A DNA stretch of 64,000 nucleotides from a candidate division Kazan bacterium RIFCSPHIGHO2_01_FULL_44_14 (GCA_001771185.1 METB01000001.1:439200-503199); one strand, 5' to 3'. Positions 3 through 63,840 are shown, counted from the stretch's first letter. The notes: generated from the sequence alone by a model not told the origin. Made by a program: numbers and translations.

Positions 3-1022
3 GTGATTGTAGATAAGGAGGGGGCTAGTTGGACGATACCAAAGCGAGCGTCGATGGTGATTAAACGCGATATCTTGTCGGAGTGGATAGAACACATATT
101 ATCGTTTGCAAAAATTGATGGGTTGAAACCATTAAAGATAGTAGTGGACGCTGGCAATGGGGTGGCGGGACCGATTGTCCGAGAGTTATTTGTACAACTT
201 AACCAAGGGAAAGAGCGAGATACCCGTACCGAGCTTATCGAGGTATATTTCGAGCCAGACGGTAATTTCCCGCATCATTTGCCAAGCCCGATTGAGCCAA
301 AAAATGTGGAGGATTTGTGTAAGAAAGTGGTTGAAGAGAAGGCGGATTTAGGGATGGCGTTTGACGGTGATGCCGACCGACTGTTTTTGGTAGATAACAA
401 TGGGCAATGGGTGAATGGTTCGGAAATGACCGCGTTGGTGATGGATGCGATTTTAACAGAGGATTCAACTCGGACGGTGTTGTATAATGCGATTTGCGGT
501 TGGAATGTTCGAGATGTAATCGAACGACACAGGGCTAAAGCATTGCGTACGCGTGTTGGGCATGGGTTTATCAAAAATGACATGAAAACCTATGGTGCCT
601 TTTTTGCCGGCGAACACTCTGGGCATTATTTCTTTCAAGACAATTACGGTTGTGATTCCGGGTTAATTGCGGCAATGCTGGTTTTGTCATTGATAGCAGA
701 GACGAATCGGTCGCTAATAGAATTATTGGTGCCACATCGGAGATATTTTCAGATTCCAGAGACAAACTTTGAAGTGACCGACATCAAAGTGGCTTTAAAT
801 AAACTAGCAGAAAGATTCCAACATGAAGAACTTGATTGGTTAGATGGATTAACAATTAAAACACTTGAGTGGTGGGCGAATATTCGGCCAAGCCAAACTC
901 AACCGTTGTTGCGGTTGAATGTTGAAGCGACCACTCCAGAAATTCTGGAGCGGGTGACAGCCGAGCTGACTGGATTCATCACAATGGGTCATCCTGAACT
1001 GGTTTCAGGATCTAGATGCTGA
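3..1022 (+). CDS. PGM/PMM-family phosphohexomutase (phosphoglucomutase/phosphomannomutase/phosphoglucosamine-mutase type), C-terminal part; 5' end truncated by the window edge
   Basis: Translation carries the PGM/PMM-family motifs GMAFDGDADR and GEHSGHYFF and a domain IV tail. The last 11 codons (GHPELVSGSRC*) are supplied by a palindromic repeat element at 988-1018. Confidence 0.8.
   Translation: MIVDKEGASWTIPKRASMVIKRDILSEWIEHILSFAKIDGLKPLKIVVDAGNGVAGPIVRELFVQLNQGKERDTRTELIEVYFEPDGNFPHHLPSPIEPKNVEDLCKKVVEEKADLGMAFDGDADRLFLVDNNGQWVNGSEMTALVMDAILTEDSTRTVLYNAICGWNVRDVIERHRAKALRTRVGHGFIKNDMKTYGAFFAGEHSGHYFFQDNYGCDSGLIAAMLVLSLIAETNRSLIELLVPHRRYFQIPETNFEVTDIKVALNKLAERFQHEELDWLDGLTIKTLEWWANIRPSQTQPLLRLNVEATTPEILERVTAELTGFITMGHPELVSGSRC
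988..1018. repeat. Palindromic repeat element, copy A (gtcatcctgaaCTGGTttcaggatctagatg)
   Basis: The 31 nt are identical to copy C at 23919-23949. A longer variant lies at 6924-6966. The core is an inverted repeat, TCCTGAA/TTCAGGA. Confidence 0.8.
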
Positions 1023-6208: not shown

Positions 6209-8665
6209 ATGAAAGAGGAGCACTTTAATCACCAGACCATCGAGGCCAAGTGGCAAAAATATTGGAGCAAAGAAAAACTGTTTACGGCCAAAACCGGCGA
6301 TAAACAGTCGAAGGTCTATGTTTTAGATATGTTTGCTTATCCTTCGGGTGATGGGTTGCATGTCGGACATCCCAAGGGGTATATCGCTACGGATATTTTT
6401 GCGCGCTATTATCGAATGCGGGGGATGAATGTACTTCGACCAATTGGCTGGGATGCCTTTGGTCTGCCGGCCGAGAACTATGCGATTAAAGTGGGCAAAC
6501 CGCCAGCCGAGACGACCGAGGTTAATATCAAACGGTTTACCAAGCAACTAAAGTCGCTTGGGTTCGTGTATGACTGGGAGCGAGAGATCAACACCTCCAA
6601 GCCGGACTATTATAAATGGACCCAGTGGCTGTTTAAGATTTTATACGACAACGGTTATGCCTATCAAAAGGAGGCCCATGCCAACTGGTGTCCTAGTGAT
6701 CAGACGGTACTTGCGAATGAGCAGGTGGTAAATGGCTGTTGTGAGCGATGTGGGACGCAAGTTGAGCAGAAACAATTGAAGCAGTGGTTTTTTAAAATTA
6801 CCGAGTTTGCCGAGGAACTATTGGCGGGTCTGAATAAAGTTGACTGGCCGGAATCGACCAAAGTCGGACAGCGGAATTGGATTGGACGCTCTGAAGGAGC
6901 TTCGTTAAAATTCCAAGTTGTCCGTCATCCTGAATTTATTTCAGGATCTAAAGTTGAGATGCTGAATCAAGTTCAGCATGACGAGCTAAACATCGAAGTG
7001 TTTACCACGCGGGCGGATACTATTTTTGGGGCGACTTATTTGGTATTGGCACCGGAACATCCAATAATTAAAAATGAAAAATTAAAAATTAAAAATTTGG
7101 AGGAAGTTATCCAATACATAGAAACAACTAAGAAAAAAAGTGAGCTTGAAAGACAAATCCAGAAAGAGAAAACAGGTGTTCAGTTGGAAGGAGTAATGGC
7201 AATCAACCCAGCGACTGGACAAGAGATTCCGATTTGGATTGCAGATTATGTGTTGATGAATTATGGGACGGGAGCAATTATGGCGGTGCCGGCGCATGAC
7301 GAGCGGGATTTTGAATTTGCGAAGAAATTTAATTTGCCAATTATTAGAGTAATCGAAGGGGGAGAATTACCTTTTGTTGGCCAAGGCCAGTTAGTAAATT
7401 CAGGAATTTTCAGCGGTAAGAACTCTTTGGCATTAATGGCGGATATGGCCGAGAAATTTGGCGGGAAATTAAAAGTACAGTACAAATTACATGACTGGCT
7501 GATTTCTCGTCAGCGGTATTGGGGAGCACCAATACCAGTGGTTTATAAACCACTGGAAATATCAAATTCCAAATCTCAAATACCAAATGGAGAAGAGGGG
7601 TGGAAAGTGGTATCGGTGGACGAGAAGGATTTGCCGGTGATGCTGCCAACGGATGTAGATTTTAAACCAACAGGTGAATCGCCTCTTGCTAATTCAAAAA
7701 CTTTCCAGACGGGAGTAGAAAAAAAATACGGCAGAGGGGCATATCGAGAACTGGACACGATGGACACCTTTGTGTGTTCGTCATGGTATTTTTTGCGCTA
7801 TTGCGATTCTAACAACGACAAAGAATTCGTTAGTGGGAAAGCGCTGAAATATTGGATGCCAGTGGATTTGTATATTGGTGGAGCAGAACATACTAACGGG
7901 CATTTGTTGTATGCTAGATTTATCACCAAGGTTTTGTATAAACTAGGATATTTGGACTTTGACGAACCATTTTTGAAGTTGCGCCACCAAGGATTAATCT
8001 TGGCACCGGATGGTGAGAAGATGAGTAAGAGCAGAGGCAATGTGATAAATCCAGATAATTTAATTGCCAGATACGGCGCCGACACTTTGAGAATGTACGA
8101 AATGTTTATGGGTCCGTTTGATCAGACGGTGGCCTGGGATACTAATGGTGTGACGGGGGTCCGCAAATTTTTAGAGCGAGCATACAAGCTAGTAAAAGAC
8201 CGTAAAGATGAACTGGCAGTAGATGATGTGTCAATCAACCGATTGGTCAAAAAAGTGACCGAGGATATTGCCGAGATGAAATTTAATACGGTAGTGAGTA
8301 GTATGATGGAATTTATTAACGATATGAGCCGAGTGCCAGATGGCGGATGGGCTGAATCATTTGTACAAGTACTAGCTCCGTTTGCACCGCACTTAGCCGA
8401 AGAAATGTGGCAGAATATTTTAGGATATAAAACTAGCGTGTTTGAGTCGGCCTGGCCAACTTTTGACAAAAATAAAATTGCTCACAGTACGGTCGTAATC
8501 GCAGTTCAAGAAAATGGCAAACTGCGAGGGACGGTTAATCTTCCGGCGGGGGCATCAAAAGAAGATGTGTTGTTGGCAGTCAATCAAGACGAGCGATTGG
8601 CCAAGATCGCCAAATCGGCCAAGCGCGAAATATTTGTGCCGGATAAAATTATTAATTTTATTTGA
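6209..8665 (+). CDS. leuS: Leucyl-tRNA synthetase
   Basis: HVGH (HIGH-class) and KMSKS motifs, CP1 editing-domain sequence, 818 aa. It contains an in-frame copy of the palindromic repeat at 6924-6966. Confidence 0.95.
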   Translation: MKEEHFNHQTIEAKWQKYWSKEKLFTAKTGDKQSKVYVLDMFAYPSGDGLHVGHPKGYIATDIFARYYRMRGMNVLRPIGWDAFGLPAENYAIKVGKPPAETTEVNIKRFTKQLKSLGFVYDWEREINTSKPDYYKWTQWLFKILYDNGYAYQKEAHANWCPSDQTVLANEQVVNGCCERCGTQVEQKQLKQWFFKITEFAEELLAGLNKVDWPESTKVGQRNWIGRSEGASLKFQVVRHPEFISGSKVEMLNQVQHDELNIEVFTTRADTIFGATYLVLAPEHPIIKNEKLKIKNLEEVIQYIETTKKKSELERQIQKEKTGVQLEGVMAINPATGQEIPIWIADYVLMNYGTGAIMAVPAHDERDFEFAKKFNLPIIRVIEGGELPFVGQGQLVNSGIFSGKNSLALMADMAEKFGGKLKVQYKLHDWLISRQRYWGAPIPVVYKPLEISNSKSQIPNGEEGWKVVSVDEKDLPVMLPTDVDFKPTGESPLANSKTFQTGVEKKYGRGAYRELDTMDTFVCSSWYFLRYCDSNNDKEFVSGKALKYWMPVDLYIGGAEHTNGHLLYARFITKVLYKLGYLDFDEPFLKLRHQGLILAPDGEKMSKSRGNVINPDNLIARYGADTLRMYEMFMGPFDQTVAWDTNGVTGVRKFLERAYKLVKDRKDELAVDDVSINRLVKKVTEDIAEMKFNTVVSSMMEFINDMSRVPDGGWAESFVQVLAPFAPHLAEEMWQNILGYKTSVFESAWPTFDKNKIAHSTVVIAVQENGKLRGTVNLPAGASKEDVLLAVNQDERLAKIAKSAKREIFVPDKIINFI
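6924..6966. repeat. Palindromic repeat element, copy B, inserted in frame inside leuS
   Basis: gtcatcctgaaTTTATttcaggatcta[aagttgag]atgctgaa encodes RHPEFISGSKVEMLN in LeuS. The same element encodes HPELVSGSRC at the end of ORF 3-1022. Confidence 0.75.
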
Positions 8666-23859: not shown

Positions 23860-24020
23860 AAGCAAAACTGTCTTACTGCTCTCGCCAAACTCTCCCTCCC
23901 CAGTTGTGTCTTCTTCTCGTCATCCTGAACTGGTTTCAGGATCTAGATGAGTAAAATAAATTTAGCATGACAGAACTGGGGAGGGATCAAACAGTTGGCT
24001 TCGCAATGGCAGTTTTGCTG
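23860..24020. repeat. Composite palindromic element (MITE-like): outer inverted arms around palindromic repeat copy C (23919-23949)
   Basis: The left arm (gcaaaactg...ctccctccccagtt) is partly complementary to the right arm (aactggggagggat...cagttttgc). Confidence 0.55.
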
Positions 24021-42048: not shown

Positions 42049-42816
42049 ATGACGGTCTGTATTGGAGCTTTGGCTGAGAATGGGCAAAAGCTGGTACTTG
42101 TATCGGATAAGATGATTACTGCTAACATCCCGATTGCTTATCAGTTCCAGAAGCCAGATGTGCAAAAAATTTATCCGATTAACAATAATGCCCAAGTGCT
42201 GACTGCTGGGAATGCTTTATATGCTCACGAGATTGTCCGTATGGCAGTAAAACGGGTTGCGAAAGAGCGTCTCGAGGGTAAAGATGCTCATAGCGTTGAA
42301 GAGATTACGGAGATAATAAGATCTATCTACCAGGCGTTTAGATTGCAAAAGGTGGTTCAGCTTGTCTTGGAGCCAAGGGGGTTATCATTGGATGCCTACT
42401 ATAGTAATCAACAAAGGTTGCACCAAGGAATGGTGGGCGAAATAGAGCAAAACTTAGTGAACTACAATATAGGAGTAGAGTTAATAGTCGCTGGTATTAA
42501 CCCTGGGGACGGATGTCATCTGTACAGTATTACCCATCCTGGCGTATCCGCCTGTCACGACACGATAGGATATGCCTGTGTAGGTAGTGGAGCTCCCCAC
42601 GCTCTCTATTCTTTAATAGCCTCTGAATATACTAAAGACAAATTGGTTGGGCAGGTTGAAGCGTATGTAGATGATGCTAAGAAAAAGAGTGAGGTTGCCC
42701 CTGGAGTTGGGACGGAAACCGAAAAGATCATACTTCCACCTGCTACAATAGAAGCGGTTCCAGAAGTAATGCATACAGCGGTGCCAGTATTAGATAATCC
42801 ACAGCCACCAGTATGA
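42049..42816 (+). CDS. Proteasome-like N-terminal-nucleophile hydrolase (HslV/Anbu-like), putative
   Basis: Thr directly after the initiator Met (MTVCIGALAENG), a Lys about 30 residues in, and a GSG motif (ACVGSGAPHA). 255 aa. Confidence 0.4.
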   Translation: MTVCIGALAENGQKLVLVSDKMITANIPIAYQFQKPDVQKIYPINNNAQVLTAGNALYAHEIVRMAVKRVAKERLEGKDAHSVEEITEIIRSIYQAFRLQKVVQLVLEPRGLSLDAYYSNQQRLHQGMVGEIEQNLVNYNIGVELIVAGINPGDGCHLYSITHPGVSACHDTIGYACVGSGAPHALYSLIASEYTKDKLVGQVEAYVDDAKKKSEVAPGVGTETEKIILPPATIEAVPEVMHTAVPVLDNPQPPV

Positions 42817-43046: not shown

Positions 43047-43108
43047 GGATTTGTAAGTCTGCTCTAATTTGTTTCCAATCAAGAGTTCTAAGTTTGTCCA
43101 CGAGGGGG

Positions 43109-43143
43109 AGCCAAATGAAAACGAGTAAAGTGACCGAGGTGCC
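43109..43143 (+). repeat. 35-bp direct repeat R1 (candidate attL), containing a truncated 13-codon copy of the small ORF at 63742-63840
   Basis: AGCCAAATGAAAACGAGTaAAgTGACCGAGGTGCC compared with 63736-63770 AGCCAAATGAAAACGAGTcAAaTGACCGAGGTGCC, 33 of 35 identical. Confidence 0.7.
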
Positions 43144-45258: not shown

Positions 45259-46638
45259 CTAGCGGGCTGAAGTGGGTTCATCGATAAGCTTGGTTAGGGT
45301 AGTTTTCTTATTGTCTTGTAGTGTCAGTTTGCCTTGGTTCAATATTACTTGGCTTTGGATGTTTGCTAGTATCTCTCGCTTTTGTTCATTACTACCTTCC
45401 CGGAGAATGTACTTGGCATACATTTTCAGGTCCACTCTTGGCATTTTGGAGGTGGCGGAATCTATCCCCAGCACTCCCTGCGTGAATTTATTGTAGCGGT
45501 CTATCTCTTCCTGCAACCTATCCTTCATCCCGATTCGATCTAGAGTCAGTTTATCGATAATCTCCACAAATTGTTCAATGAGGTCTGCCTCTCTGACATA
45601 AGGTTGTTTGCACCCGATTCTCTTGCTATCTGTGCAGTGATAGTAGACATGGCGATTCATCTCACCATTCTTTAATCGCTTGAATTTTTCTTCAGCACTG
45701 ACTCCGGCCCCGCACTGACCGCAGGTCATCATCCTTGTAAAGGCGAAGCACTTTTCACCATGACGGCCATGTGGGGGTTTAGAAATTCTAACTTGCACCT
45801 CATCAAATAACTCTTTGTTAATTAGTGGTTCGTGTTTGCCTTGGTAGCTTCCTTCGCCATAGGTATATTCGCCATAGTAGAAGCTATTCTTGAGAGTCAG
45901 AAAGATTGAACTTAGTGCCATCTTCTTGCCGCTTCGAGTCGTGAAGTTAGTTTCGCTATTAAGCCAATCTAAGATGTTCCTGCCGGAGTAGCCATGTTTG
46001 GCCACCTTATTGAAGATCTCTTTAATGGTGGGAGCTCTTTCTTTGTCGACCAAGATCGTGTTGTCGGCATAGTTGTTGAGATAGCCGAGTGGGGCGACTC
46101 CTGGTCGCCAGCCCATCTCACATTTGGTTCGCATCCCTCGTTTAACATTCACGCCCTTGTTATCGTTTTCCAATTTGGCTTGGGAACAGAGAATCATTAA
46201 GAGGAACTTCTCGTTAGGGGAGTTCCGGAATATCTGACCATGGGTTCTGATTTCGTGCAGAAGTCCTTGGTCCATAAGGTCGACCAAAGAGCCAAGGTCT
46301 CCGGCATTACGGCTCAATCGGTCTGGAGCCCATGTCATAATTCCATTGAAATCGCCTTCTCGGATTCTCATCAGAAGCTCAGTAAAGGCGGGTCTTTGGC
46401 CGGAGTCCTTAGCCGAGTGGCTTTCCTTGATAGTCTCTACTATCTCTATCCCATCCCTCTCAGCCATCGCCAACATCTCTTTGATTTGGCTGTCTATGGA
46501 GAGGGCTTGTCGTTCGTCCTGCTCTGAGGACTTACGGGCATAGAGACAGTACTTGGCTCCCTGTGGTTGCTCCATGGCTTCCGAAGACCCCTCGGGAGCT
46601 CCTGGAATCGTCTCGTTTTTCACCATATTTGCCTCCAT
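45259..46638 (-). CDS. Large serine recombinase (second copy, distinct sequence)
   Basis: The resolvase catalytic region CLYARKSSEQDE...DSQ, recombinase domain, and zinc ribbon (CGQCGAGVS...YYHCTD). The N-terminal start is uncertain (MEAN... or MEQP...). Confidence 0.8.
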   Translation of the reverse strand: MEANMVKNETIPGAPEGSSEAMEQPQGAKYCLYARKSSEQDERQALSIDSQIKEMLAMAERDGIEIVETIKESHSAKDSGQRPAFTELLMRIREGDFNGIMTWAPDRLSRNAGDLGSLVDLMDQGLLHEIRTHGQIFRNSPNEKFLLMILCSQAKLENDNKGVNVKRGMRTKCEMGWRPGVAPLGYLNNYADNTILVDKERAPTIKEIFNKVAKHGYSGRNILDWLNSETNFTTRSGKKMALSSIFLTLKNSFYYGEYTYGEGSYQGKHEPLINKELFDEVQVRISKPPHGRHGEKCFAFTRMMTCGQCGAGVSAEEKFKRLKNGEMNRHVYYHCTDSKRIGCKQPYVREADLIEQFVEIIDKLTLDRIGMKDRLQEEIDRYNKFTQGVLGIDSATSKMPRVDLKMYAKYILREGSNEQKREILANIQSQVILNQGKLTLQDNKKTTLTKLIDEPTSAR

Positions 46639-49600: not shown

Positions 49601-52291
49601 ATGGCATTACATCCTAATTTCCCAAAATCTCCCCATGCTATCTTGAACCCAGATTTACGCTGGTTTCCGGCAGATGAAGCATTGAGAGAGAAAGATTACA
49701 GCAAATTGTTGCCACCACTTGTGGCAAAGCTTCGTAAGGAAGTGGCAATTTGGCGTGACAAGAACTACGAGGGGGCCACGGATACCAGTAAGGGCTTATT
49801 GCAGTGGTGGTTCAAGACGGATCACCCCATGGATGATAGCAATGGCAGAACATACTTATTTGAATATTATTTCGCCCAGCGAGAAGCGGTAGAGACTGTT
49901 ATTTATCTCTATGAAATCGCTGGCGTTAAACAACCTTTAGATCTTCTGAAGTACGATAGCTCGGGAGCCATCTCTACTGGGATGTTCGATGAATCTTGGT
50001 TGAGATTTGTCATTAAGATGGCTACAGGTAGTGGCAAGACGAAGGTCTTAAGTTTGATATTGGCTTGGAGCTATTTCCATAAGATGTATGAAGAATACTC
50101 TCATTTGGCGAGAAACTTCCTAGTGATTACCCCGAACATTATTGTATTGGATCGTATCCGGTCTGATTTTGATGGACTCAAGATTTTCTTTCAAGATCCA
50201 GTTGTGCCAGATAACGGGTTTGAGGGTAAGAACTGGCGAGATGATTTTCAGCTAACACTTCATATTCAGGACGAGATTGGGGTAGTCAATAAAACGGGAA
50301 ACATTTTTCTTACCAATATCCATCGGGTCTATGAAGGTAATGTGACTGAACCGACTTTTAAAGATGAAGACACTACTAACTATTTTCTAGGTAAAAAGCC
50401 TACTGGGGCGACCAATGAATCAAAAGTGGATCTTGGTCAGATTGTGCGTGATGTAGATGAGCTGGTAATCCTGAATGATGAAGCCCATCATATTCACGAC
50501 CCGAGAATGGCCTGGTTTAAGTCCATCGAAGACATCCATAATCGGCTGAAGATGAAGGGGGTGTCGTTATCGCTTCAGCTAGATGTGACAGCCACTCCCA
50601 AACACGATAATGGTTCTATTTTTGTACAAACAGTTAGTGATTATCCGCTGGTCGAAGCCATCCATCAGGATGTGGTGAAGCATCCGGTTCTGCCGGATTC
50701 GGCTAGTCGAGCCAAGCTTCAGGAGCAAAAAAGCTCTATCTTCACCGAAAAGTATAAAGACTATATCCATCTGGGCTTTCTGGAATGGAAAAAGGTATAT
50801 GAGCAACACAAGAAACTCGGCAAGAAAGCTGTTCTGTTTGTAATGACTGATGACACTAAAAATTGCGATGAAGTGGCTGAGTATTTACATAAAACCTATC
50901 CCGAGTTTAGTAATCAAGATTCAGTACTGGTCATTCACACCAAGAATAATGGTGAAATCTCCGAGAGCGTAACTGGCAAAAATGAAGAAGAGCTTAAAGA
51001 GCTTCGTCTAGCGGCCAATAGTATCGATTCATTTGATAGCCCACACAAGGCAATTATTTCTGTGCTGATGTTGAAAGAGGGTTGGGATGTAAAGAATGTA
51101 ACGACTATTGTTGGACTTCGAGCCTATTCTGCCAAAAGCAATATCTTGCCCGAGCAAACACTAGGCAGAGGTCTGCGACGAATGTATAGGGCGGAGAATA
51201 TTACTGAGATGGTGAGCGTGGTGGGTACCGATGCGTTTATGGACTTTGTTGAGTCTATTAAAAGCGAGGGTGTGGAATTGGAACGTCGCAAGATGGGTGA
51301 GGGTACTGAACCTAATGCTCCGTTAGTCATTGAGGTTGATAACGAAAATACCAAGAAGGATATCGCTAAACTGGACATTGAGATTCCTGTTCTGACTCCT
51401 CGGATCTATCGGGAATACAAAAACCTGTCGGATTTGAATTTGGCAGGTCTTCAGTACAAGAAAATCGAGCTTAAACAATTCTCTAAAGAGGAACAGCGAG
51501 AGATTGTTTTTAGGGACATAGCTACCGGAAATATTACCCATACCACCAAGTTTGATACGGAGTTTACGCCGAATTATCAGAGTGTTATTGGCTACTTTAC
51601 GCAAGTGATTATGAAGGAACTTCGGCTGGTTAGCGGTTATGATGTTTTGTATGGCAAGGTAAAAGAATTTATTCAAAGTAGTCTCTTTACCAAGTCGGTA
51701 GATTTGGAAGACCTTAACATACTGCGTAACTTGTCAGAACTAGAAGTGACCAAGACTATAGTTGAGACTTTCAAAAAAGCTATCAACGCTCTGACAGTTC
51801 TGGATAAAGGGGAGGCCGAAATCAGGGACTACATTAAGGTCAGTAAGAGTCGGCCGTTTGTCACCAGAGAGCAGGGTTATCTTTTGCCCAAGAAAAGTGT
51901 CTTTAACAAAATTGTCGGAGACAGTCATCTTGAGCTAGAGTTTGCCAGTTTTCTAGAAGAAGCCGAGGATGTAGTTTCTTATATCAAGAATTATTTTTCT
52001 GTCTACTTCCGAATTGACTATCAAAACAGTAGTGGTGATATCTCTAACTTTTATCCCGACTTCATCGTTAAGTTGTCTGAGAAAGAGGTCTATATTGTCG
52101 AGACTAAAGGTAGGGAAGACCTGGACGACATTGAGAAAATAAACCGACTTCGACAGTGGTGTCAGGATATCAACGAAGTACAAAAGAAGGCCACCTACAA
52201 AATGCTATATGTGAAGCAAGAGGATTGGGATAAGTTAGACCATAAACCAGGGTCTTTTGCCGAGGCTGTCCGACTTTTTGAAGATAAATAA
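49601..52291 (+). CDS. Type III restriction enzyme Res subunit (SF2 helicase plus C-terminal PD-(D/E)xK nuclease)
   Basis: Walker A ATGSGKTKV, DEAH box LNDEAHHI, C-terminal PDFIV...YIVETKG. Confidence 0.85.
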   Translation: MALHPNFPKSPHAILNPDLRWFPADEALREKDYSKLLPPLVAKLRKEVAIWRDKNYEGATDTSKGLLQWWFKTDHPMDDSNGRTYLFEYYFAQREAVETVIYLYEIAGVKQPLDLLKYDSSGAISTGMFDESWLRFVIKMATGSGKTKVLSLILAWSYFHKMYEEYSHLARNFLVITPNIIVLDRIRSDFDGLKIFFQDPVVPDNGFEGKNWRDDFQLTLHIQDEIGVVNKTGNIFLTNIHRVYEGNVTEPTFKDEDTTNYFLGKKPTGATNESKVDLGQIVRDVDELVILNDEAHHIHDPRMAWFKSIEDIHNRLKMKGVSLSLQLDVTATPKHDNGSIFVQTVSDYPLVEAIHQDVVKHPVLPDSASRAKLQEQKSSIFTEKYKDYIHLGFLEWKKVYEQHKKLGKKAVLFVMTDDTKNCDEVAEYLHKTYPEFSNQDSVLVIHTKNNGEISESVTGKNEEELKELRLAANSIDSFDSPHKAIISVLMLKEGWDVKNVTTIVGLRAYSAKSNILPEQTLGRGLRRMYRAENITEMVSVVGTDAFMDFVESIKSEGVELERRKMGEGTEPNAPLVIEVDNENTKKDIAKLDIEIPVLTPRIYREYKNLSDLNLAGLQYKKIELKQFSKEEQREIVFRDIATGNITHTTKFDTEFTPNYQSVIGYFTQVIMKELRLVSGYDVLYGKVKEFIQSSLFTKSVDLEDLNILRNLSELEVTKTIVETFKKAINALTVLDKGEAEIRDYIKVSKSRPFVTREQGYLLPKKSVFNKIVGDSHLELEFASFLEEAEDVVSYIKNYFSVYFRIDYQNSSGDISNFYPDFIVKLSEKEVYIVETKGREDLDDIEKINRLRQWCQDINEVQKKATYKMLYVKQEDWDKLDHKPGSFAEAVRLFEDK

Positions 52292-55647: not shown

Positions 55648-55722
55648 GCCGAGGTAGCTCATTGGTAGAGCGAGAGCTTGAAAAGCTCTGCGTAGGAGGT
55701 TCAATTCCTTCCCTCGGCACCA
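55648..55722 (+). tRNA. tRNA-Phe (anticodon GAA)
   Basis: GCCGAGG acceptor, D-arm GCTCATTGGTAGAGC, anticodon loop TTGAAAA, T-loop GGAGGTTCAATTCCTTC, CCA encoded. Confidence 0.8.
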
Positions 55723-55724
55723 AT

Positions 55725-55799
55725 GCCCCCGTAGGCTAACGGATAGACCAAGTCGCTTCTATCGACAGAGTGAGGGTTCGATTCCTTCCGGGGGCACCA
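55725..55799 (+). tRNA. tRNA-Arg (anticodon UCU), weak D-stem
   Basis: GCCCCCG/CGGGGGC acceptor, anticodon loop CTTCTAT, T-loop GAGGGTTCGATTCCTTC, CCA encoded. It lies 2 nt after tRNA-Phe. Confidence 0.65.
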
Positions 55800-55825: not shown

Positions 55826-57448
55826 TTACCACCTTCTGGAGGCGCGTCCCCAGCCGTGAGGGTCATTTTCCTCTAGATTATCGAGTAATCCACCTGATCG
55901 TCCTCTCCGTTTTCTGGTCTCGGTTTCTAGAGTTTCCCTCTCCCAGCCAGTAGTGCCATCAGGGGAGTAACAAAGATCACCATTTCTATCTCGGTATACG
56001 ATACCGATATTACAGTTAATCTTGTCATCCGCCATTACCCTAAGCACTAGCATTGTAAACGCATCGGCTAAGTCATCGTATCTTTCTCGGCCAAAACCCG
56101 TAATCTGATGAATCAACTCTTCTGCTCCTTTACGAGGGAACAATACTTTACCAGTTTGAATCAGGGCAGTGGTGGTGGACAGACGAGACCGTTTATCATT
56201 CTTACTGGTAAATTCCTCGGCGGTGATACCTTGGGTTTTAAGGTGTTGACCGAAGGCCGCTTGGTAAGCCGTGCTGTCGAAACAGAGTTTTACCGTGTAA
56301 TGTTGTTTAGTCCAAGACTTGTAGGATTCGATAACGGTTTGCACCGATGTCGGGAAGTCCATCCGCCGATTAATTGGGCCGGGCAGAATGTTGATTTGTA
56401 AACCATTCCTGCCACTATAAACCAGTGCTGTAACCACGGCAGTGTAGTTAGCTGATTCTTTTTCCGAAATCGCTAGATCAACCGCCATCGAAACATATCG
56501 CAATTTGGGGTCGTTCATACCCGGGGTTTGGTTTGGCAACTCATCATAGTAATGTAGCCACTCGGGATGCACAACTCGTTCGGCATCGGAAATAATCTTC
56601 AACAGATATTCTCGGCTCCAATCGATATCATCTGCTACCGTGCGCTTTTCATCATTGATGGCATCTTCGTCGGGATACTTGCCTGGCCAGAGACAATTGC
56701 CGTCGTAATCGATGAGGGGGTAGAACTCAAACACTCCGTCTCGTTTACTCTCTCGGATTTCTTTGCGTAATCGCATAATTAACGAGTCGTCGTGCAGTAA
56801 GTTTCCGATGACGACAATATTGGTGCGCCGGTCGCCAGTCGGAATTAGATCGCCCTTAAACCAGCGATAAGTTTTATCTCGGCTATCTTGGGTGGCGACA
56901 GAGTTCAAATCTTCGACATCATCACAGATGATTAAATCTGGTCGATAGGTGCCATACCTGATGCCTCGGATACCTTCTTCAACCGATGCCACTACAATTC
57001 TAGCTTTGTATTTAGACAGCTCAATCGTGCCACCACCCCACTTGGTGTTGCTACTTCGGAAAGGTCCCATATCTGCTTTAAGCAGAGTGTTGTCGGTTAG
57101 CTCCGCCTTCAAGCTTTCCAGTAGTCGTCTCGCCATGTCTTGAGTTTTGCTGGTGATAAGAATGTGCTTTTTTTGGAGCTTGCCCATAATCGCCCACAGA
57201 GGATAGGACAAGCTAATTAGGGTGCTCTTGCCCGATGCCCTAAAGGCACAAATTACTAGTGTCTTTATTTTAGTGTCTTGAGTTAGCTCGAAGATCTCTT
57301 TCTGGAAATCGGCGGTTTCGTATTGCACATAGTGGGGGAGATAGATACTGAAAAACATCAGATGAGCGTCCCTGGCCGCTTCAATCCGCATCCCCTGGTT
57401 GTTGATAATCTGACTAATCCACTTATCTCGTTCGTCATTGTTTAACAT
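55826..57448 (-). CDS. Phage terminase large subunit
   Basis: N-terminal ATPase with Walker A (AFRASGKST) and a C-terminal RNase-H-like nuclease region. 540 aa. Confidence 0.75.
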   Translation of the reverse strand: MLNNDERDKWISQIINNQGMRIEAARDAHLMFFSIYLPHYVQYETADFQKEIFELTQDTKIKTLVICAFRASGKSTLISLSYPLWAIMGKLQKKHILITSKTQDMARRLLESLKAELTDNTLLKADMGPFRSSNTKWGGGTIELSKYKARIVVASVEEGIRGIRYGTYRPDLIICDDVEDLNSVATQDSRDKTYRWFKGDLIPTGDRRTNIVVIGNLLHDDSLIMRLRKEIRESKRDGVFEFYPLIDYDGNCLWPGKYPDEDAINDEKRTVADDIDWSREYLLKIISDAERVVHPEWLHYYDELPNQTPGMNDPKLRYVSMAVDLAISEKESANYTAVVTALVYSGRNGLQINILPGPINRRMDFPTSVQTVIESYKSWTKQHYTVKLCFDSTAYQAAFGQHLKTQGITAEEFTSKNDKRSRLSTTTALIQTGKVLFPRKGAEELIHQITGFGRERYDDLADAFTMLVLRVMADDKINCNIGIVYRDRNGDLCYSPDGTTGWERETLETETRKRRGRSGGLLDNLEENDPHGWGRASRRW

Positions 57449-57848
57449 TTTTCCCTCCTATCGGTTTACCTTTATATATTCCAGCCAATGACAGAGCTTT
57501 TTTGATGAGAGCCCGTTGGGCTGGTGTTAACGGACTATCTTTGTGTTCCACTTTCGCCATTACTTGCAATTTCTCGGCATAAGACGAATGTCGATTGCGG
57601 AGCCAAAACATCAGGGCAGTCATGTTTTGGTTCTTAATTGCCGTCAATAATTGAGACTCCGCAAGGTCGTTGATCAGGTCGCATCCCTCTGCCAACGCCT
57701 TGTCCGCTTGCTGGGCAAAGGTTTTACTTTCTCGTTTCCACCGATAGAAGGTCGCTCGGCTGATGCCAGTTTTCTGGCAAGCGGTCTGAACAATAGGTGT
57801 TCGGCGGAGAATTTCCAGTACTTCTTCTTTTTGGCTCATTGGTTTCAT
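57435..57848 (-). CDS. Putative terminase small subunit / HTH DNA-binding protein
   Basis: HTH (ACQKTGISRATFYRWKRE) immediately upstream of, and overlapping, the large-terminase gene. Confidence 0.5.
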   Translation of the reverse strand: MKPMSQKEEVLEILRRTPIVQTACQKTGISRATFYRWKRESKTFAQQADKALAEGCDLINDLAESQLLTAIKNQNMTALMFWLRNRHSSYAEKLQVMAKVEHKDSPLTPAQRALIKKALSLAGIYKGKPIGGKNVKQ

Positions 57849-59170
57849 CGTACTTTTACTCCTTTCTGCCCAGTCAGTTTTTCCCATCTATTCCGGATTA
57901 CACAAGCGTATGTAGGAGATTTTTCGGAAATATAACATTTTCTTCCGAGTTTTTCACAAGCGATTAAAGTTGAACCTGAGCCACCGAATGGTTCAATCAC
58001 CCAGTCACCACGCTTGGTCAACACCTTGATGTAGGGGATTAATATCTCAATTGGCTTAACGCCAAAGATAATCCCTTGACCAGAACTCTTCTCATCCGCC
58101 ACATTGAACTCGATGAAGTCAGTCGGCTGGTACTTCTTGCCTTTTTCATACCCCTCCCATTGGGGTTTACCTTGGATGGCAAACAACGCTGTTTCGTATT
58201 CGTTTTGGAGTAGCTCATCCTCTGGCTCTAAGTTGAAGGATGGTTCACCGCCTTGTCCGACCATGGCGATATCGTGTTTGCTGAAAAACTTATATTTAGC
58301 CGCGAATCCTTGGTTGCGATTGGGAGTGTGCCAAACGATCATGTTTTTTACTTTCCAATGTTTGGCCATCTCACCCCAAATGGTGGGGATATTCTTCCAG
58401 TTCTCATAACATAGGATTGAAAAGTTGGGAGAAGCCATTTTAGCGATGTTCGTCATCCAAAGCTCCGTAAAGTTATCCGGCAACTCATCGGTCTCCAAAT
58501 ACTTGCGGTCTCGCTTGAACCCGAATCCCTCAGTCGGTTTGCCATGCTTCTTCTTGCCTTTGAGATAATCCAAAATGTACGGGGGGTCCGTGAGGCAGAG
58601 AGATGGCGGTGTTTCGCAGACCAGTCCAGTAATATGAGCTTCGTCAGTTGAGTCGCCACAAGCAAGATAATGATTACCTAATTTCCAGAGGTCGCCCTTT
58701 TGGATGTCTATATCGGTGATACCTATCTTGTCTAACTCTTTTTGTAGGTCGAACACTTCGGGGGTCTCGTCGATGCCAGTAATCTCGTCCATTTCTTCAC
58801 TGGAAAAACCAACATCAGTTAGCAGCGCTGGATCAAATTCTGCCAGCAAGTCTAGGTCCCAAGCGCCAAGGTTGCGGTTTAACCTCAAGTTCAGTTCTCG
58901 TTCACGCTCTATCTCGGGGATGTTCACAAACACTACAGGCACTTCTTTGATGCCGAGGTCTTTGGCCACCTTCAAGCGGAAATGACCCCCTATAATAATG
59001 TTCTCTCTCCCGGGAGCATTATTGCAGAGGATGGGATCGACCATCCCAAACTTACGGACGCTGTCAGTCAGCTGTTGAATAGCTGACTCATCCCAACGAC
59101 GAGGATTATATGTGCTCGGCTTGAGCTCGGAAACCGGCAGGTAGCGAACGGCCAGATTATCTTTATCCAT
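57845..59170 (-). CDS. ParB-like nuclease domain fused to a beta-class DNA methyltransferase
   Basis: N-terminal ParB/Srx motif (IIGGHFRL), central DPPY (CLTDPPYILDY), C-terminal motif I (IEPFGGSGST). A fusion common in phages. Confidence 0.75.
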   Translation of the reverse strand: MDKDNLAVRYLPVSELKPSTYNPRRWDESAIQQLTDSVRKFGMVDPILCNNAPGRENIIIGGHFRLKVAKDLGIKEVPVVFVNIPEIERERELNLRLNRNLGAWDLDLLAEFDPALLTDVGFSSEEMDEITGIDETPEVFDLQKELDKIGITDIDIQKGDLWKLGNHYLACGDSTDEAHITGLVCETPPSLCLTDPPYILDYLKGKKKHGKPTEGFGFKRDRKYLETDELPDNFTELWMTNIAKMASPNFSILCYENWKNIPTIWGEMAKHWKVKNMIVWHTPNRNQGFAAKYKFFSKHDIAMVGQGGEPSFNLEPEDELLQNEYETALFAIQGKPQWEGYEKGKKYQPTDFIEFNVADEKSSGQGIIFGVKPIEILIPYIKVLTKRGDWVIEPFGGSGSTLIACEKLGRKCYISEKSPTYACVIRNRWEKLTGQKGVKVR

Positions 59171-59260: not shown

Positions 59261-59800
59261 TTATTTACTCGGTTGTTCCGGTTCGTGCCATTCGATGCCG
59301 AAGTCCTTGAGAAGCTTTTTTATTTCGAACGGAGACATCTCCAAGTGGTCTATAATCTGTAAAGTGTGTTTGGTACAAACAGGCATAAAATAATGCCTGA
59401 ATGCTTTCCAATACTTCATCTTGCGAAAGGCCTCGTCGATTGGGACTTCGGTAGCTTCATCAATAGTCTCAGATATATCATCCTTGCTTACTTTGTCCCC
59501 TGTACGTCGATTCAGTAAGTAGTTCATCAATCTATCGGGGAGGGATTGATAATGAAACTTTTGGATCTCCTTGTCTATCTCTAATGCGTCAATAACTAAG
59601 AAAAGTTTGCATCCTCTCTTGACCAACTTAACCATTGCTGGTTTCCCATCAGTAGCTTCTTCGACGGAACGATAGATAATAACTGGTGGATGGTTCGGTT
59701 CGTAGCAAGCCTTTTTTATATTGCCCCGTTGAGCCCATAAGATTGTCTGGATAAAGACCTCGAGCTCTTTTTTGTGGTTTGGTTTTGTGGGTACCTTCAT
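59261..59800 (-). CDS. Hypothetical phage-associated protein
   Basis: 179-aa ORF with an RBS-like ggagga upstream. Confidence 0.4.
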   Translation of the reverse strand: MKVPTKPNHKKELEVFIQTILWAQRGNIKKACYEPNHPPVIIYRSVEEATDGKPAMVKLVKRGCKLFLVIDALEIDKEIQKFHYQSLPDRLMNYLLNRRTGDKVSKDDISETIDEATEVPIDEAFRKMKYWKAFRHYFMPVCTKHTLQIIDHLEMSPFEIKKLLKDFGIEWHEPEQPSK

Positions 59801-60059
59801 TTTGTCCTCCTAATCTTAAGCTGATATAAAAAATCCCTAAATCGAAAGCAGTTACATCAGTAACCTGACTTTCGCTTTTCTAGGGGTTTCCTTACTCAGC
59901 GAAAGAAACAGACAGTTTCTTCAATATCGAATTGTGACTCTACATTGAGATTGTACAACCGCATCATAATGGATGTCAAATGGCCGTCCGTGACAAGGTT
60001 ATCACCTAGAGGCAAGAGTATAATGGTTAAGAGCAGATGCTCTTAATTTTTTGAGACTT

Positions 60060-62504
60060 ATGATGTTTGGAACTGTAGATATTAAAATCAGACCCCTGAA
60101 ATTCGCTTGCCTCGTAGACCCTAAAAGCTCCAAGCAGACACGAGCGGCTATCAGGCTGTGTTCCAGTCTCTGGGGAGGGGCTTATTTTCCCATTATCCCT
60201 ATTTATAAAAAGATGCCGACATCGTGGCGGGGAGACCAATTGAAATTTGGCCCAGCGAGCAAAGTAGTCACAGGATATATCGAGGCATTTGACCCGGACA
60301 TTTTAATCCAATTTTCCGACAAGATACCAAAATACATAACCAAATTGGGACTTGAAATTGTTCAACCGAATGAAGTATGGTCACCATTAAAAGACGACTA
60401 TTCGCATCCACGTTTCGGGATAGGAATTTTTGAAATTCTTAGCGACGTTTTCCGGGAATATTTTAAGTACCAAGTAAAGTACCCAGTAAAGGTGTTCTTG
60501 CCCAAAATACCTACTCAACTTTCTCTATTTTGGGCTAGCTTGTTTGGAGAGCTGTCATCAGATATTACAGCAATAGTAGATCGGGATTATTCTGAGCCAC
60601 TTGCGGTGGAGAAAGTGAGTAATGTCATAGATCGTCTGTCGGAAGTAATGGCTTCTGATGGTATATTCCCAAGACGCTTAACGCAGTGGGGTTTGACTCC
60701 GTATGGTGGGTCTGCTCGTAGAAATGCCGCTGTCTTTTTTATGGATGCTACCAAAGTGGAGGACATAGTAGATTTTTGGAATTTGCGAGCTATTGGTATG
60801 GATGTCATGCCAGTCCCCAAACAGCTTTCTGACAATTCACAGCTACACGACTTGGTAGCTAATTTTTTCAAAAATCATCGGATCCCATGGAAACACAACA
60901 AGGAAGTTTGTGATTATGCGTCCATTATTAGGGCTGGGCACTGCACGATGGAAGAAGTGCAGGAATACGCTAAGACCTTCCAATTGCAACCCGAACCCAA
61001 CGATCCTTCTAGGGATGGATTCTTTTCGTTACAACACTGGTATCCCCGAATTTGGGATGAGTGGGCTAGGGATAGGGATGGGGCTAACCCAAGAGATATA
61101 TTAGGCGAAGAAGAGCATAGTATCGATATTTCTGATGCCAAGGCATTAAAATTACACTTGCCTGCGATTTGGCCTAAGTTTGCTTTTAGAAAGTTCGGGT
61201 ATGGCGACCCAAGGTGTGTTAATGAGGTGAGTTTGCGATTTTACGGTGCTGAAGAATATATAGCCGAGGCTTTTCCCAAATTATCCGGAGACAACTTTAA
61301 CCGAGCAATCTCTGGGAGATTTTCGATGATGGGAGACTGGCGAATAGGAAGGAATGGATTGGTCAGGCTCGTGAAGGATGATCGAATTGACACTAGAGAT
61401 ATTCCTGCCGCTGAAGATATTATGTTGGCATGGATTAAAGATCAGGGATGGGATGATCCTAAGTTATCTACTCCCGGTCTTTTGGCCAAGCGAATATATG
61501 AAATATTAGAAGGTCATCCGAAGTCTTTGGCAAATGAAAAACTTCTTGGTCTGCTGGAGCATATGAACGGCGGGCTAGTTAAAAAAGATGGTACTCCAGC
61601 AGAAAAGACCAAACTTAGTAATGAACGAGAACTCTCTTCTGCTGAGCTTAAGGAGCGATTGGGCGTGGGTCTATATGAATATCTTGTTGGGCGTGGGATT
61701 TTTAAGATAGGATTGCGAATACAATGTCCAAATTGTTCCAGAAACTCCTGGTTTCCAATGGACAACTTGCGAGATCAATTAACCTGTCCGCTGTGTCTAT
61801 CCGTCTTCCCAGCCATCGGGCACGTTGATGATAAGAGCAGTTGGTGCTATAAAACATCGGGTCCTTTCAGTGTGCCTGGATATGCAGACGGAGCCTTTGC
61901 GGTGTTGCTTGCCGTAGATTTTTTCGATGATCAATTGTCTAATTTACACACAACTCCCATTCTTAGCTTTACTGCCAAAGCATCAGGGAAGAAGGATTTA
62001 GAGGCAGATTTTGCTTTATTGTGGCAAGAAGCTGCCTATGGGGAGAATGAGGAGGGGGTTATATTTGGCGAATCAAAAACTTATGGACAGTTCAAGAAGA
62101 AAGATTTTGATAGGATGCGATTTTTGGCAAAAACATTTCCGGGAGCAATTTTGGTGTTTAGTACACTGCGGAAATCGTTGACTCATGAGGAGCTGACAGC
62201 AATAGCAAGTATTGCCAAAAGAGGGCGAAGATACTGGAAGGCTGATCGTCCTATCAACCCGGTATTAGTCTTAACGGGGGCAGAGATGTTGGCACACTAC
62301 CGACCTCCGTATTGTTGGAGCGAGACTTTGCAGAAGAAATTTGGACATCTCAGTGGTCTGCTAAGCATTTGCAACGCAACCCAGCAAATTTATCTAAATT
62401 TGCCATCTTGGAGTACGGAGTGGCGTGAGAAGCATGAAAAAAGATTACAGAAAAAGACAAAAAATACTCGTAAGACTAAGGCGACAAAATGTAAGGGCGA
62501 ATAG
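60060..62504 (+). CDS. Large hypothetical protein (about 815 aa) with a C4 zinc ribbon and a C-terminal PD-(D/E)xK-like motif
   Basis: CPNCSRNSW...CPLC zinc ribbon at ~aa 560. DLEADFALLWQE...VIFGESKTYG (D...ExK) near the C-terminus. No NTPase motifs. The start is uncertain (the annotated ORF opens at TTG 60051; the first ATGs are at 60060 and 60063). Confidence 0.5.
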   Translation: MMFGTVDIKIRPLKFACLVDPKSSKQTRAAIRLCSSLWGGAYFPIIPIYKKMPTSWRGDQLKFGPASKVVTGYIEAFDPDILIQFSDKIPKYITKLGLEIVQPNEVWSPLKDDYSHPRFGIGIFEILSDVFREYFKYQVKYPVKVFLPKIPTQLSLFWASLFGELSSDITAIVDRDYSEPLAVEKVSNVIDRLSEVMASDGIFPRRLTQWGLTPYGGSARRNAAVFFMDATKVEDIVDFWNLRAIGMDVMPVPKQLSDNSQLHDLVANFFKNHRIPWKHNKEVCDYASIIRAGHCTMEEVQEYAKTFQLQPEPNDPSRDGFFSLQHWYPRIWDEWARDRDGANPRDILGEEEHSIDISDAKALKLHLPAIWPKFAFRKFGYGDPRCVNEVSLRFYGAEEYIAEAFPKLSGDNFNRAISGRFSMMGDWRIGRNGLVRLVKDDRIDTRDIPAAEDIMLAWIKDQGWDDPKLSTPGLLAKRIYEILEGHPKSLANEKLLGLLEHMNGGLVKKDGTPAEKTKLSNERELSSAELKERLGVGLYEYLVGRGIFKIGLRIQCPNCSRNSWFPMDNLRDQLTCPLCLSVFPAIGHVDDKSSWCYKTSGPFSVPGYADGAFAVLLAVDFFDDQLSNLHTTPILSFTAKASGKKDLEADFALLWQEAAYGENEEGVIFGESKTYGQFKKKDFDRMRFLAKTFPGAILVFSTLRKSLTHEELTAIASIAKRGRRYWKADRPINPVLVLTGAEMLAHYRPPYCWSETLQKKFGHLSGLLSICNATQQIYLNLPSWSTEWREKHEKRLQKKTKNTRKTKATKCKGE

Positions 62505-62509
62505 ATATC

Positions 62510-63424
62510 ATGGATCAAAAGCGTAGCCAGAAGCACCATTATTTGCCAGTTAACTATCTTAATGGTTTTACTGACGACCAAGGTCTTTTCTTCGTTTATG
62601 ATAAAAAAGAGGACCAAATTGTTCAGAAGGCGGTCACGCCAAAGTCGGTATTTTTTGAGAACAATCTCAACACCATAGCATTAAAAGATGAGTGTTCAGA
62701 TTTCCTTGAGGGTCTCTATACCCAAACGGAGAATATATTGTGGGCTCCTTTTGAAACTATCAGACGATCCAAGTCTACTGATCAGATCCAACCTCTAGAC
62801 AGAATGCATTTGTACCTTTTTCTTACATTGCTGTACTGGAGGTTGCCCAGCAATTTCAATCAGGTAAAGAGCTTTTCAAGTAAAGCATTTGCCCACAATA
62901 ATGAAATCGATTACTTTCAGCTAAAATCTCGTAATGGGGATGTCTCCAATGAGATGATTGAGCAGATGAGAGGGTCAGAGTCGTTTAATAAATCAGTAAG
63001 ACTGATACTTCCATTTGCTCCATTCCTTAAGAACAAGGAGTGGTTTTTGTCAGTTGTGAAATGGAAGTTCGTCTATATAGAGCCGAATACGACAGCTTTT
63101 ATTACTGGAGATAATCCGATTATTCTCAAGGATGAGAGTGGTGAGGCCGTTGATCCGCTGGGCGAATTTATTTTTCCGATATCTAGTAATATTCTGTTAG
63201 CGAATTGCGACCATGCTATCAAAAAGGAGTTGGATCCAGCATTCGTTCTACAGGCCAACATTGCAATCATGGAAAATGCCAAGCGGTTTGTAATTTGCCG
63301 GAGCAAAGAATTTCTTCAGGGGTTAGTTAAATACTACAAAATATATAGTCAATACGGGAAAACTCCAACGATAGCGCCAGAGGTATTTGCTATGCTTATA
63401 GATACAGAGCTGGAGTATAAATAG
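62510..63424 (+). CDS. DUF4238-like protein (N-terminal HHYLPxxYLxxF motif)
   Basis: QKHHYLPVNYLNGF matches the recalled DUF4238 N-terminal signature. 304 aa, beginning 6 nt after the upstream gene. Confidence 0.45.
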   Translation: MDQKRSQKHHYLPVNYLNGFTDDQGLFFVYDKKEDQIVQKAVTPKSVFFENNLNTIALKDECSDFLEGLYTQTENILWAPFETIRRSKSTDQIQPLDRMHLYLFLTLLYWRLPSNFNQVKSFSSKAFAHNNEIDYFQLKSRNGDVSNEMIEQMRGSESFNKSVRLILPFAPFLKNKEWFLSVVKWKFVYIEPNTTAFITGDNPIILKDESGEAVDPLGEFIFPISSNILLANCDHAIKKELDPAFVLQANIAIMENAKRFVICRSKEFLQGLVKYYKIYSQYGKTPTIAPEVFAMLIDTELEYK

Positions 63425-63425
63425 T

Positions 63426-63611
63426 ATGCAACTCACTGATAAAGAAATAGTCGAATTTCAGCGAATTTACGAGAAGGAGTTTGGAGTCAAAATTAGCAAG
63501 CAGGATGCTCTTGAACAGGGTACGAAGCTACTAGTTTTGATGAAAGCCATTTACCAACCCATCCCATCACAAGGCCATAAAATCCCTCAAAAATCCAGTC
63601 CAAAACAGTAG
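63426..63611 (+). CDS. Small hypothetical protein (61 aa), third gene of the module
   Basis: It starts 2 nt after the DUF4238-like stop. No motif. Confidence 0.3.
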   Translation: MQLTDKEIVEFQRIYEKEFGVKISKQDALEQGTKLLVLMKAIYQPIPSQGHKIPQKSSPKQ

Positions 63612-63735
63612 GCCCTGCCACTGTCTCATTTGTCTCATTTTCTCCTATGGGTTCTACAACTGACCCACTTGCCCGAGCTCCTTTTCAAAAGCCCCAAATT
63701 ATCTCCTTAGGAATGCAATCCGAACCGAGCTGTTG

Positions 63736-63770
63736 AGCCAAATGAAAACGAGTCAAATGACCGAGGTGCC
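63736..63770 (+). repeat. 35-bp direct repeat R2 (candidate attR)
   Basis: See R1. This copy starts an intact 33-codon ORF (63742-63840, MKTSQMTEVPISVNLPLAEAIEREYQQVQLLL). Confidence 0.7.
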
Positions 63771-63840
63771 TATTTCGGTCAATTTGCCGTTGGCTGAAGC
63801 GATTGAGCGAGAATATCAGCAGGTTCAACTGCTTCTGTAA
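63742..63840 (+). CDS. Tiny ORF (32 aa) whose 5' end is duplicated at 43115-43156; candidate integration target
   Basis: ATG at 63742. Followed by a terminator at 63841-63872 (ccgtctccttgggaaagaggcgg, then T7). Confidence 0.25.
   Translation: MKTSQMTEVPISVNLPLAEAIEREYQQVQLLL

Follow-up and report, generated by a model that had tools for sequence, protein, structure and literature searches.

A variable site carrying a predicted nuclease gene and a DUF4238 gene in a phage-derived element of a candidate division Kazan bacterium

A stretch of 64,000 nucleotides from the genome of the candidate division Kazan bacterium RIFCSPHIGHO2_01_FULL_44_14 (GCA_001771185.1 METB01000001.1:439200-503199), referred to here in its full length as the window, has three co-directional, adjacent open reading frames (ORFs) close to its end, encoding a large protein of about 800 residues, a DUF4238 protein and a protein of 61 residues. 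An initial annotation of the window described these genes as a three-gene module, and the question raised by the locus is whether they form one undescribed anti-phage or abortive-infection system or are neighbors that happen to be packed together. Comparison with related loci shows that the three genes are independent and stacked, and do not make up a single system. We consider it reasonably probable that the end of a phage-derived integrative element forms a variable cargo site here, at which two autonomous genes are stacked as a block of 3.4 kb: the first would encode a nuclease combining sensor and effector, the second a DUF4238 defense protein, and the third would be a gene of the element backbone.

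Independence of the three genes

The large ORF extends from a TTG codon at position 60051 to position 62504 on the plus strand and encodes 817 aa when read from this codon, the length originally given. Gene callers and the N-termini of homologues favor a shorter protein starting at the ATG at 60060 (814 aa) or 60063 (813 aa); one of these two codons is the likely start because homologues begin with "MFG...", with TTG 60051 as the alternative. The DUF4238 ORF (62510–63424, plus strand) encodes 304 aa and the small ORF (63426–63611, plus strand) 61 aa. The tight, co-directional spacing reported at first is there, with intergenic gaps of 5 nt and 1 nt rather than 6 and 2 nt. Promoter-like and terminator-like sites are no commoner between positions 59700 and 64000 than in shuffled sequence.

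Elsewhere, these genes do not keep one another's company. Around the large gene at 80 genome loci (one genome per GTDB species), no homologue of the DUF4238 or 61-aa protein was found within 6 kb, even at E≤10 (0/80), and the DUF4238 profile used is able to detect a divergent Photobacterium protein at E=4e-25. The large gene is also alone in the metagenome contexts of three relatives with about 55% identity (P0014, P0097 and P0072), which are, respectively, a region resembling an integrative and conjugative element, an interval between a molybdopterin oxidoreductase gene and nrfA, and a miscellaneous region; the three nearest other relatives (P0004–P0006, 58–59% identity) are likewise alone, without DUF4238. 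Conversely, the large gene is absent from all 80 metagenome loci harboring the closest relatives of the DUF4238 protein (38–50% identity), at which the commonest neighbor cluster is present in 5 of 80 cases. No neighbor cluster is found at more than 10 of 84 large-gene loci, no Pfam family reaches more than 4 of 139 among the nearest neighbors, and the downstream gene is co-directional at 37 of 79 loci.

The 61-aa gene is separated from the other two by comparison with two sister elements. Nucleotide homology between the window and the first of these (locus L180) ends near 59980 and restarts at about 63410–63426. L180 encodes DUF2779, the large and small terminase subunits, a ParB-methyltransferase and a 179-aa gene, directly followed by a 61-aa gene whose product is 87% identical to that of the window; neither the large gene nor DUF4238 is present. 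The second (L003) aligns with window positions 60015–63398 at 72% nucleotide identity and has both genes, encoding a large protein 77% identical to that of the window and a DUF4238 protein about 62–64% identical, followed by unrelated 366-aa and 256-aa genes; the 61-aa gene is missing. The site between the 179-aa and 61-aa genes is empty in one relative, occupied by two genes here and by four in another. Because L180 has the 61-aa gene without the pair, and L003 the pair without the 61-aa gene, this small gene can be assigned to the element backbone and the pair to a cargo block of about 3.4 kb (59981–63425, plus strand), which, by these alignments, is present or absent as a whole at a variable site. 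Only three variants have been seen, so this site is best called a putative hotspot.

The 61-aa protein has no family match in Pfam, NCBIfam, PHROGs or PADLOC. No more than 10 clusters make up its family, with identities of 69% or higher throughout, and an identical copy of the protein has candidate division Kazan bacterium as its source name at NCBI. The sole distant homologue (E=8e-10) lies on L164:3496-5900, in another island holding a DUF4238 gene, from which it is separated by 1.3 kb and by genes of 156 and 232 aa. The 61-aa gene forms part of the Kazan-lineage element's backbone and has no relation to the large gene or DUF4238.

The second gene can be assigned to a known family. The initial annotation had recognized DUF4238 by an HHYLP signature, which lies at residue 9, and the Pfam hidden Markov model bears this out: residues 8–266 match PF14022 at profile positions 1–280 of 281, with E=5.7e-31 and a score of 108.4 bits where 27 is the cut-off. 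The DUF4238 anti-phage system is listed in DefenseFinder as Rst_DUF4238; none of the models of PADLOC-DB v2.0.0 matches the window protein, and the DUF4238 profile finds no relative among the sequences of the PDB. The family can no longer be called an uncharacterized component, as it had been at first, given that a DUF4238 protein acting alone is an experimentally validated anti-phage system: a single gene from a P2-like prophage hotspot of Escherichia coli TA007 confers strong resistance to T7 (Rousset et al., 2022, PMC9122126). The window protein is 22% identical to this E. coli protein (pFR101) over about 260 aa (BLASTP, E=4e-6), and the two have in common the motifs HH(Y/F)L..YL.GFT, F(I)T.DNP and FP(I/V)S.N(I/L)LLA. 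By homology, the second gene is a remote member of this family, with a predicted anti-phage activity of its own. It resembles the single-gene system in its full-length PF14022 match, in lacking a conserved partner and in occupying a site for variable cargo within an element derived from a phage, and differs from it in the low identity and in the host, a bacterium of the candidate phyla radiation (CPR). With a host of this kind, the DUF4238 system would have a wider range than is known at present.

The site itself can be compared with the defense hotspots that P2-like phages and P4-like satellites carry (Rousset et al., 2022), with which it shares a fixed position for variable cargo in a phage-derived element, here adjoining the ParB-methyltransferase and terminase module; the element family and the host are different, and here there are three variants only. 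A candidate division Kazan bacterium, with a largest contig of about 0.7 Mb here, would, on this comparison, carry a phage-derived element with a swappable site for defense cargo, like the P2/P4 hotspots of E. coli.

Since homologues are not syntenic elsewhere, the reading of the three genes as a module fails, and the claimed new system dissolves, with one part turning out to be a known defense family and another element backbone. What survives of the proposed anti-phage or abortive-infection candidate is the large protein alone, as an undescribed candidate defense gene. Its family, which none of Pfam, NCBIfam, PADLOC and PHROGs contains, is what is new at this locus.

The large protein

The large protein is a member of a widespread family with no annotation. 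A profile search of 1.84 billion representative sequences recovered 3005 clusters (at 50% identity) with E≤1e-3, 785 of them with E≤1e-30, nearly all of about 800 aa and aligned from end to end. More than 500 homologues, none of them annotated, are about 55% identical over their full length, with sources including Patescibacteria, Desulfonatronum and Acidobacteria. In genomes (one per GTDB species), the family is spread over many bacterial phyla and one archaeal metagenome-assembled genome (MAG), and a scan limited by the search pattern found it in at least 121 of 185,579 species representatives. The distribution is sporadic, with identities of about 55% across phyla, and there is usually one copy per genome bin. 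A Falkowbacteria MAG (bin.303; L014 and L066) has two divergent paralogues, 57% and 30% identical to the protein of the window. Some copies of the gene are interrupted by insertions of 1–3 kb (L041, L042 and L029) and others are frameshifted (L022, L082 and L089), which fits a dispensable and sometimes costly accessory gene. In phages, there was no tblastn match among 50,697 records, no relative was found in IMG/VR with two scan patterns, and the only PHROG match had E=0.09. Unusually long members of the family yielded no informative Pfam match for fused domains.

The large protein contains no Walker A motif, in agreement with the earlier statement that it has no nucleoside triphosphatase (NTPase) motifs, and the motifs that had been noticed are located at residues 556 (CPNCSRN), 576 (CPLC), 646 (DLEADFALLWQE) and 667 (VIFGESKTYG). 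Conservation was assessed in 129 diverse representatives with a median identity of 30% to the window protein. The four cysteines of a C4 zinc ribbon (C556, C559, C576 and C579; CPNC...CPLC; 61725–61796, plus strand) are conserved in 100% of them, and the ribbon is further suggested by the structural model and by a weak match to the YnfU zinc-binding family (E=0.02–0.05). The D...ExK signature, which reads DLEADF...GESKTYG, forms the predicted PD-(D/E)xK catalytic core (E648, D650...E671-x-K673; 62001–62078, plus strand), with conservation of 98% for E648, 100% for D650, 99% for E671 and 98% for K673. Residues conserved at 93–100% are also found further along the protein (D682, E711, T739 and E742) and in its N-terminal half (W38-G39-G40, D80, D235 and W240-N-L-R-A244). 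The zinc ribbon and the nuclease signature proposed initially are, thus, nearly invariant among relatives, and both find a place in a confident structural model. Beyond the weak YnfU match and a negligible one to AbiEi (E=0.093, 10.8 bits), which is the sole match of the three proteins in PADLOC-DB v2.0.0, the large protein has no usable match in Pfam, NCBIfam, PHROGs or PADLOC and, as far as the PADLOC models go, fits no named defense system.

The AlphaFold2 (AF2) model of the protein is confident (pLDDT 83.7, pTM 0.78). It displays tandem alpha/beta domains resembling toprim or CWB2 (about 1–340), a beta-rich domain (about 341–450), a helical domain (about 451–545), a four-stranded zinc ribbon with short strands around two knuckles (about 546–590) and an alpha-beta-beta-beta-alpha-beta PD-(D/E)xK nuclease domain (about 591–780) followed by a terminal helix. 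The C-terminal domain has, in the model, an alpha/beta fold of the restriction endonuclease type. D650 lies near the start of a strand (647–659) and E671 and K673 at the end of the next (662–673), the usual placement of the D and ExK residues in the PD-(D/E)xK fold. Structural matches to the full model are headed by Can2 (8bao_B, score 9.8) and Can1 (6sce_A, 9.3), with further Can2 structures at 9.2 and 9.0, the FokI cleavage domain at 9.2 (153 residues at 3.6 Å), the BspD6I small subunit at 8.7 and Card1 at 8.6; HindIII, AspBHI, MspJI and NucS come further down the list. A Foldseek comparison of the full model with the PDB gave Can2 and MspJI as the best matches, none of which reached E≤1e-3. 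The C-terminal domain can therefore be predicted, from its conserved residues and modeled fold, to be a PD-(D/E)xK nuclease resembling Can2, FokI and MspJI. The N-terminal 545 residues have no specific structural match, and no CARF protein is present among their top 60 matches.

Several known groups of proteins are comparable with the large protein in part. Can2, Card1 and Can1 resemble it in the fold of their nuclease domain. They differ in that the large protein has no CARF protein among its top 60 N-terminal matches and no cas genes among its recurrent neighbors, is twice their size, contains a zinc ribbon and has no sequence similarity to them. Membership of the CARF nucleases (Can2/Card1), which are marked by an N-terminal CARF domain and occur with type III CRISPR systems, was considered and rejected on these grounds. 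The Type IIS and Type IV restriction enzymes FokI, BspD6I, MspJI and AspBHI resemble the large protein in their cleavage domain; the large protein differs in lacking a cognate methyltransferase, in showing no recognizable recognition or SRA-like domain and in matching no model of Pfam or PADLOC. A classical Type II or Type IIS restriction-modification (RM) system was also rejected: no methyltransferase family is present at more than 8 of 84 loci, the methyltransferases in question are either parts of complete type I systems or a diverse assortment, and the ParB-methyltransferase of the window stays in L180 although the large gene is absent there. Shedu (SduA, DUF4263) is a single-protein defense nuclease with a sensor domain and a PD-(D/E)xK domain. 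The large protein is similar to it in combining novel N-terminal domains with a C-terminal PD-(D/E)xK domain, in being encoded by a solitary gene and in its company in defense islands; it differs in having no DUF4263 or PADLOC Shedu match, in an N-terminus that is conserved throughout the family rather than variable, and in the presence of the C4 zinc ribbon.

Proposed role and alternatives

The large protein is most likely a stand-alone defense protein of the sensor-nuclease type, as predicted from its conservation and model, its sporadic distribution, its absence from the phage collections searched and its partial company of defense and mobile-element genes. We infer a nuclease activity, a role in defense, a sensing step and a nucleic acid target, which would be linked as follows. 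The N-terminal alpha/beta domains, with their conserved WGG, D80, D235 and WNLRA, may sense a cue of infection or of foreign DNA, or bind a ligand or DNA, and the helical domain and C4 zinc ribbon may hold nucleic acid. The PD-(D/E)xK domain (D650, E671 and K673) would then cut nucleic acid, probably as a dimer, as is usual for cleavage domains of the FokI/MspJI/Can2 kind, and cutting would lead to restriction of the invader or to death of the infected cell. If the protein is indeed defensive, it would add a new sensor module, in the form of a single gene, to the theme of a sensor joined to a PD-(D/E)xK domain. Its family stands out from the many uncharacterized nuclease candidates by its size, its conservation across phyla, its lack of annotation and its unmatched N-terminal half. 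A bolder proposal, which we put forward tentatively and judge somewhat less likely to be true than false, is that the protein founds a widespread, undescribed class of single-protein immune nucleases, with around 3,000 clusters, in which a novel, strongly conserved double alpha/beta domain, with a WGG/D80/D235/WNLRA pocket for a ligand or a cue of infection, would license a FokI/Can2-like nuclease tethered by a zinc ribbon. In a still bolder variant, these proteins would team up facultatively with DUF4238 proteins, as might be the case here and on a Photobacterium plasmid, and such teaming, if true, would for the first time open a functional way into how DUF4238 works.

Several observations weigh against two autonomous genes with a sensor-nuclease as the first. 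The nuclease region of the large protein has no match in Pfam or NCBIfam at E≤1, and the profile of the large family finds nothing relevant among PDB sequences, with just HrcA at E=1.8, which is noise. Defense genes are a minority among the neighbors of the large gene, many loci being flanked by housekeeping genes. The large gene and DUF4238, 5 nt apart, are kept together in two variants of the element (77% and 64% protein identity), and gain or loss affects both at once. Finally, plasmid pWMD-P3-2 of Photobacterium damselae (NZ_CP146976.1, L170:4389-8397) carries a distant full-length homologue of the large protein (WP_341509620.1, 24.7% identity), with a DUF4238 gene (WP_341509621.1) 794 bp away on the opposite strand; this is a second, independent co-localization of the two families.

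The alternative that survives best is a sub-case of the sensor-nuclease reading, in which the large protein acts by itself as a restriction endonuclease, either of Type IV (modification-dependent) or of a Type IIS-like kind, with N-terminal, helical and zinc-ribbon domains that would read DNA or its modification and FokI/MspJI-like domains that would dimerize to cut. In its favor, FokI, BspD6I, MspJI, AspBHI and HindIII, along with Can2, come nearest to the nuclease domain in structure; NTPase motifs are absent, RM genes are frequent neighbors, and the lack of a conserved methyltransferase partner is what is expected of Type IV enzymes. However, the 60 best structural matches to the N-terminal part include no recognizable modification reader of the SRA, EVE, YTH or DUF3427 type, no Pfam or PADLOC model of a restriction enzyme is matched, and the whole 800 aa are nearly invariant across phyla, which would be unusual for an enzyme under diversifying selection for specificity. 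Such an endonuclease is possible, and we regard it as a minority view.

The link between the first two genes is a real but weak signal, and it might reflect a genuine facultative two-gene system of the Kazan lineage, a co-transcribed cassette in which one of the two proteins, DUF4238 or the nuclease, would sense or modulate and the other would execute, without involvement of the 61-aa protein. The narrow gap and common orientation of the pair, its maintenance in two diverged elements with 72% nucleotide identity across the block, and its presence or absence as one block relative to L180 are consistent with such a system, as is the distant Photobacterium pair, all the more so given the rarity of both families on plasmids (2 and 4 of 72,556 records, both of which are undercounts obtained by single-query tblastn). 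However, the partner is missing at all 80 genome loci of the large gene and all 80 loci of DUF4238 relatives, and P0014, P0097, P0072 and the large protein's three nearest other relatives lack it as well; on the Photobacterium plasmid, the two genes are divergently oriented and form no operon; and DUF4238 suffices alone in E. coli. Two co-localizations among about 87 independent loci are, by a rough estimate that was not computed, about what clustering in defense islands alone would produce. A two-gene system therefore seems unlikely.

More unlikely still, the large gene may be non-defensive, as a selfish or mobile gene encoding a nuclease of the transposase or homing type, or as a sporadic nuclease of DNA repair or maintenance. 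Many copies lie between housekeeping genes without defense neighbors, and horizontal spread combined with high conservation would also fit a selfish gene. Yet the gene is usually present in one copy per genome bin, and it is too rare for a housekeeping function, given the number of species representatives in which the pattern-limited scan found it. It also has recurrent company of RM, abortive infection (Abi) and recombinase genes: in raw counts, large serine recombinases are found at 10 loci, subunits of type I RM systems at 8, 7 and 5+4 loci and methyltransferases at 6, with AAA_15/AAA_21 ATPases, Schlafen AlbA_2 proteins, MADS components and integrases also recurring. An insertion sequence in particular was rejected, given that the flanks at 70 loci show no terminal inverted or direct repeats, the longest matches being distributed as in shuffled flanks. 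On plasmid pCC829_2 of Bradyrhizobium barranii (L171:3441-9015), a remote homologue of 768 aa sharing the N- and C-terminal regions is encoded immediately downstream of a PrlF/YhaV toxin-antitoxin pair, with Abi and DUF2971 genes close by. Another ORF without annotation, of 758 aa, is present 1 kb downstream of it.

That all three genes make up one undescribed three-component anti-phage or abortive-infection system is very improbable, as the tight spacing, common orientation and occurrence of the identical triple on many contigs (near-identical copies of the same element) are countered by the 61-aa gene, which is kept at the same backbone position in L180 without the other two, is absent from L003, where unrelated genes follow the pair, belongs to a family of 10 clusters and has its one distant homologue, in L164, standing apart from the DUF4238 gene there.

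The host element and its surroundings

In this candidate division Kazan (CPR) bacterium, the cargo block is carried by a stretch of about 20.6 kb (43108–63770). Judging by its flanking direct repeats, domains, terminases and tRNAs, this stretch is an integrative element of phage origin with a serine recombinase. A boundary repeat had been described from the outset, with a length of 35 bp; it exists, and consists of 36 nt at 43108–43143 and 63735–63770, identical at 34 of 36 positions. It may be dispersed in nature instead of marking a simple duplication of att, because the region containing it (window 63615–63771) is present three times within 4 kb of the sister locus L180 (6111-6240, 8144-8196 and 10135-10163). 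The minus strand of both copies in the window encodes a similar peptide, LGH.TRFHLA.

The description of the surroundings as packed with restriction-modification and nuclease genes, in the setting of a mobile-element defense island, is confirmed by the gene content. A large serine recombinase is encoded at 45259–46638 on the minus strand. A type III-like RM system identified by domain matches comprises a 745-aa N6_N4 methyltransferase, a 204-aa ORF and an 896-aa restriction subunit with ResIII and RE_endonuc domains (49601–52291); this last protein also has a weak internal match to an S-adenosylmethionine lyase family (PF23780, E=0.0011, residues 367–465). The element also encodes a PIF1 helicase, recognized by its domain, and a DUF2779 protein with a weak Cas4-like match. 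Genes for tRNA-Phe(GAA) and tRNA-Arg(TCT) lie side by side at 55648–55799, between the DUF2779 gene and that of the terminase large subunit, and the large (phrog_38, E=2e-73) and small terminase subunits occupy 55826–57887 on the minus strand. The element also holds the ParB_N-methyltransferase fusion and the 179-aa ORF, after which come the three genes discussed here. No capsid or tail genes were recognized in the 20.6 kb, although a number of ORFs there match no family; the element resembles a satellite or what is left of a prophage.

Some features lie outside the element. An ORF just beyond it (42049–42816) has a weak match to a proteasome subunit (PF00227, E=2.9e-9). Past the end of the window, about 2–3.4 kb beyond the 61-aa gene (L172:7186-8590), there is a bAvd gene (PF22296) followed by an RVT_1 reverse transcriptase gene, which together resemble a diversity-generating retroelement situated right after the element; nearby there are also a Fic gene and a 300-aa gene of no known family, and an RVT_1 gene is also present at L001:15943-16956. 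A direct repeat of 31 nt is present at window positions 988–1018, 6924–6954 and 23919–23949, where two of the copies are identical and 23 kb apart and the remaining one is 81% identical.

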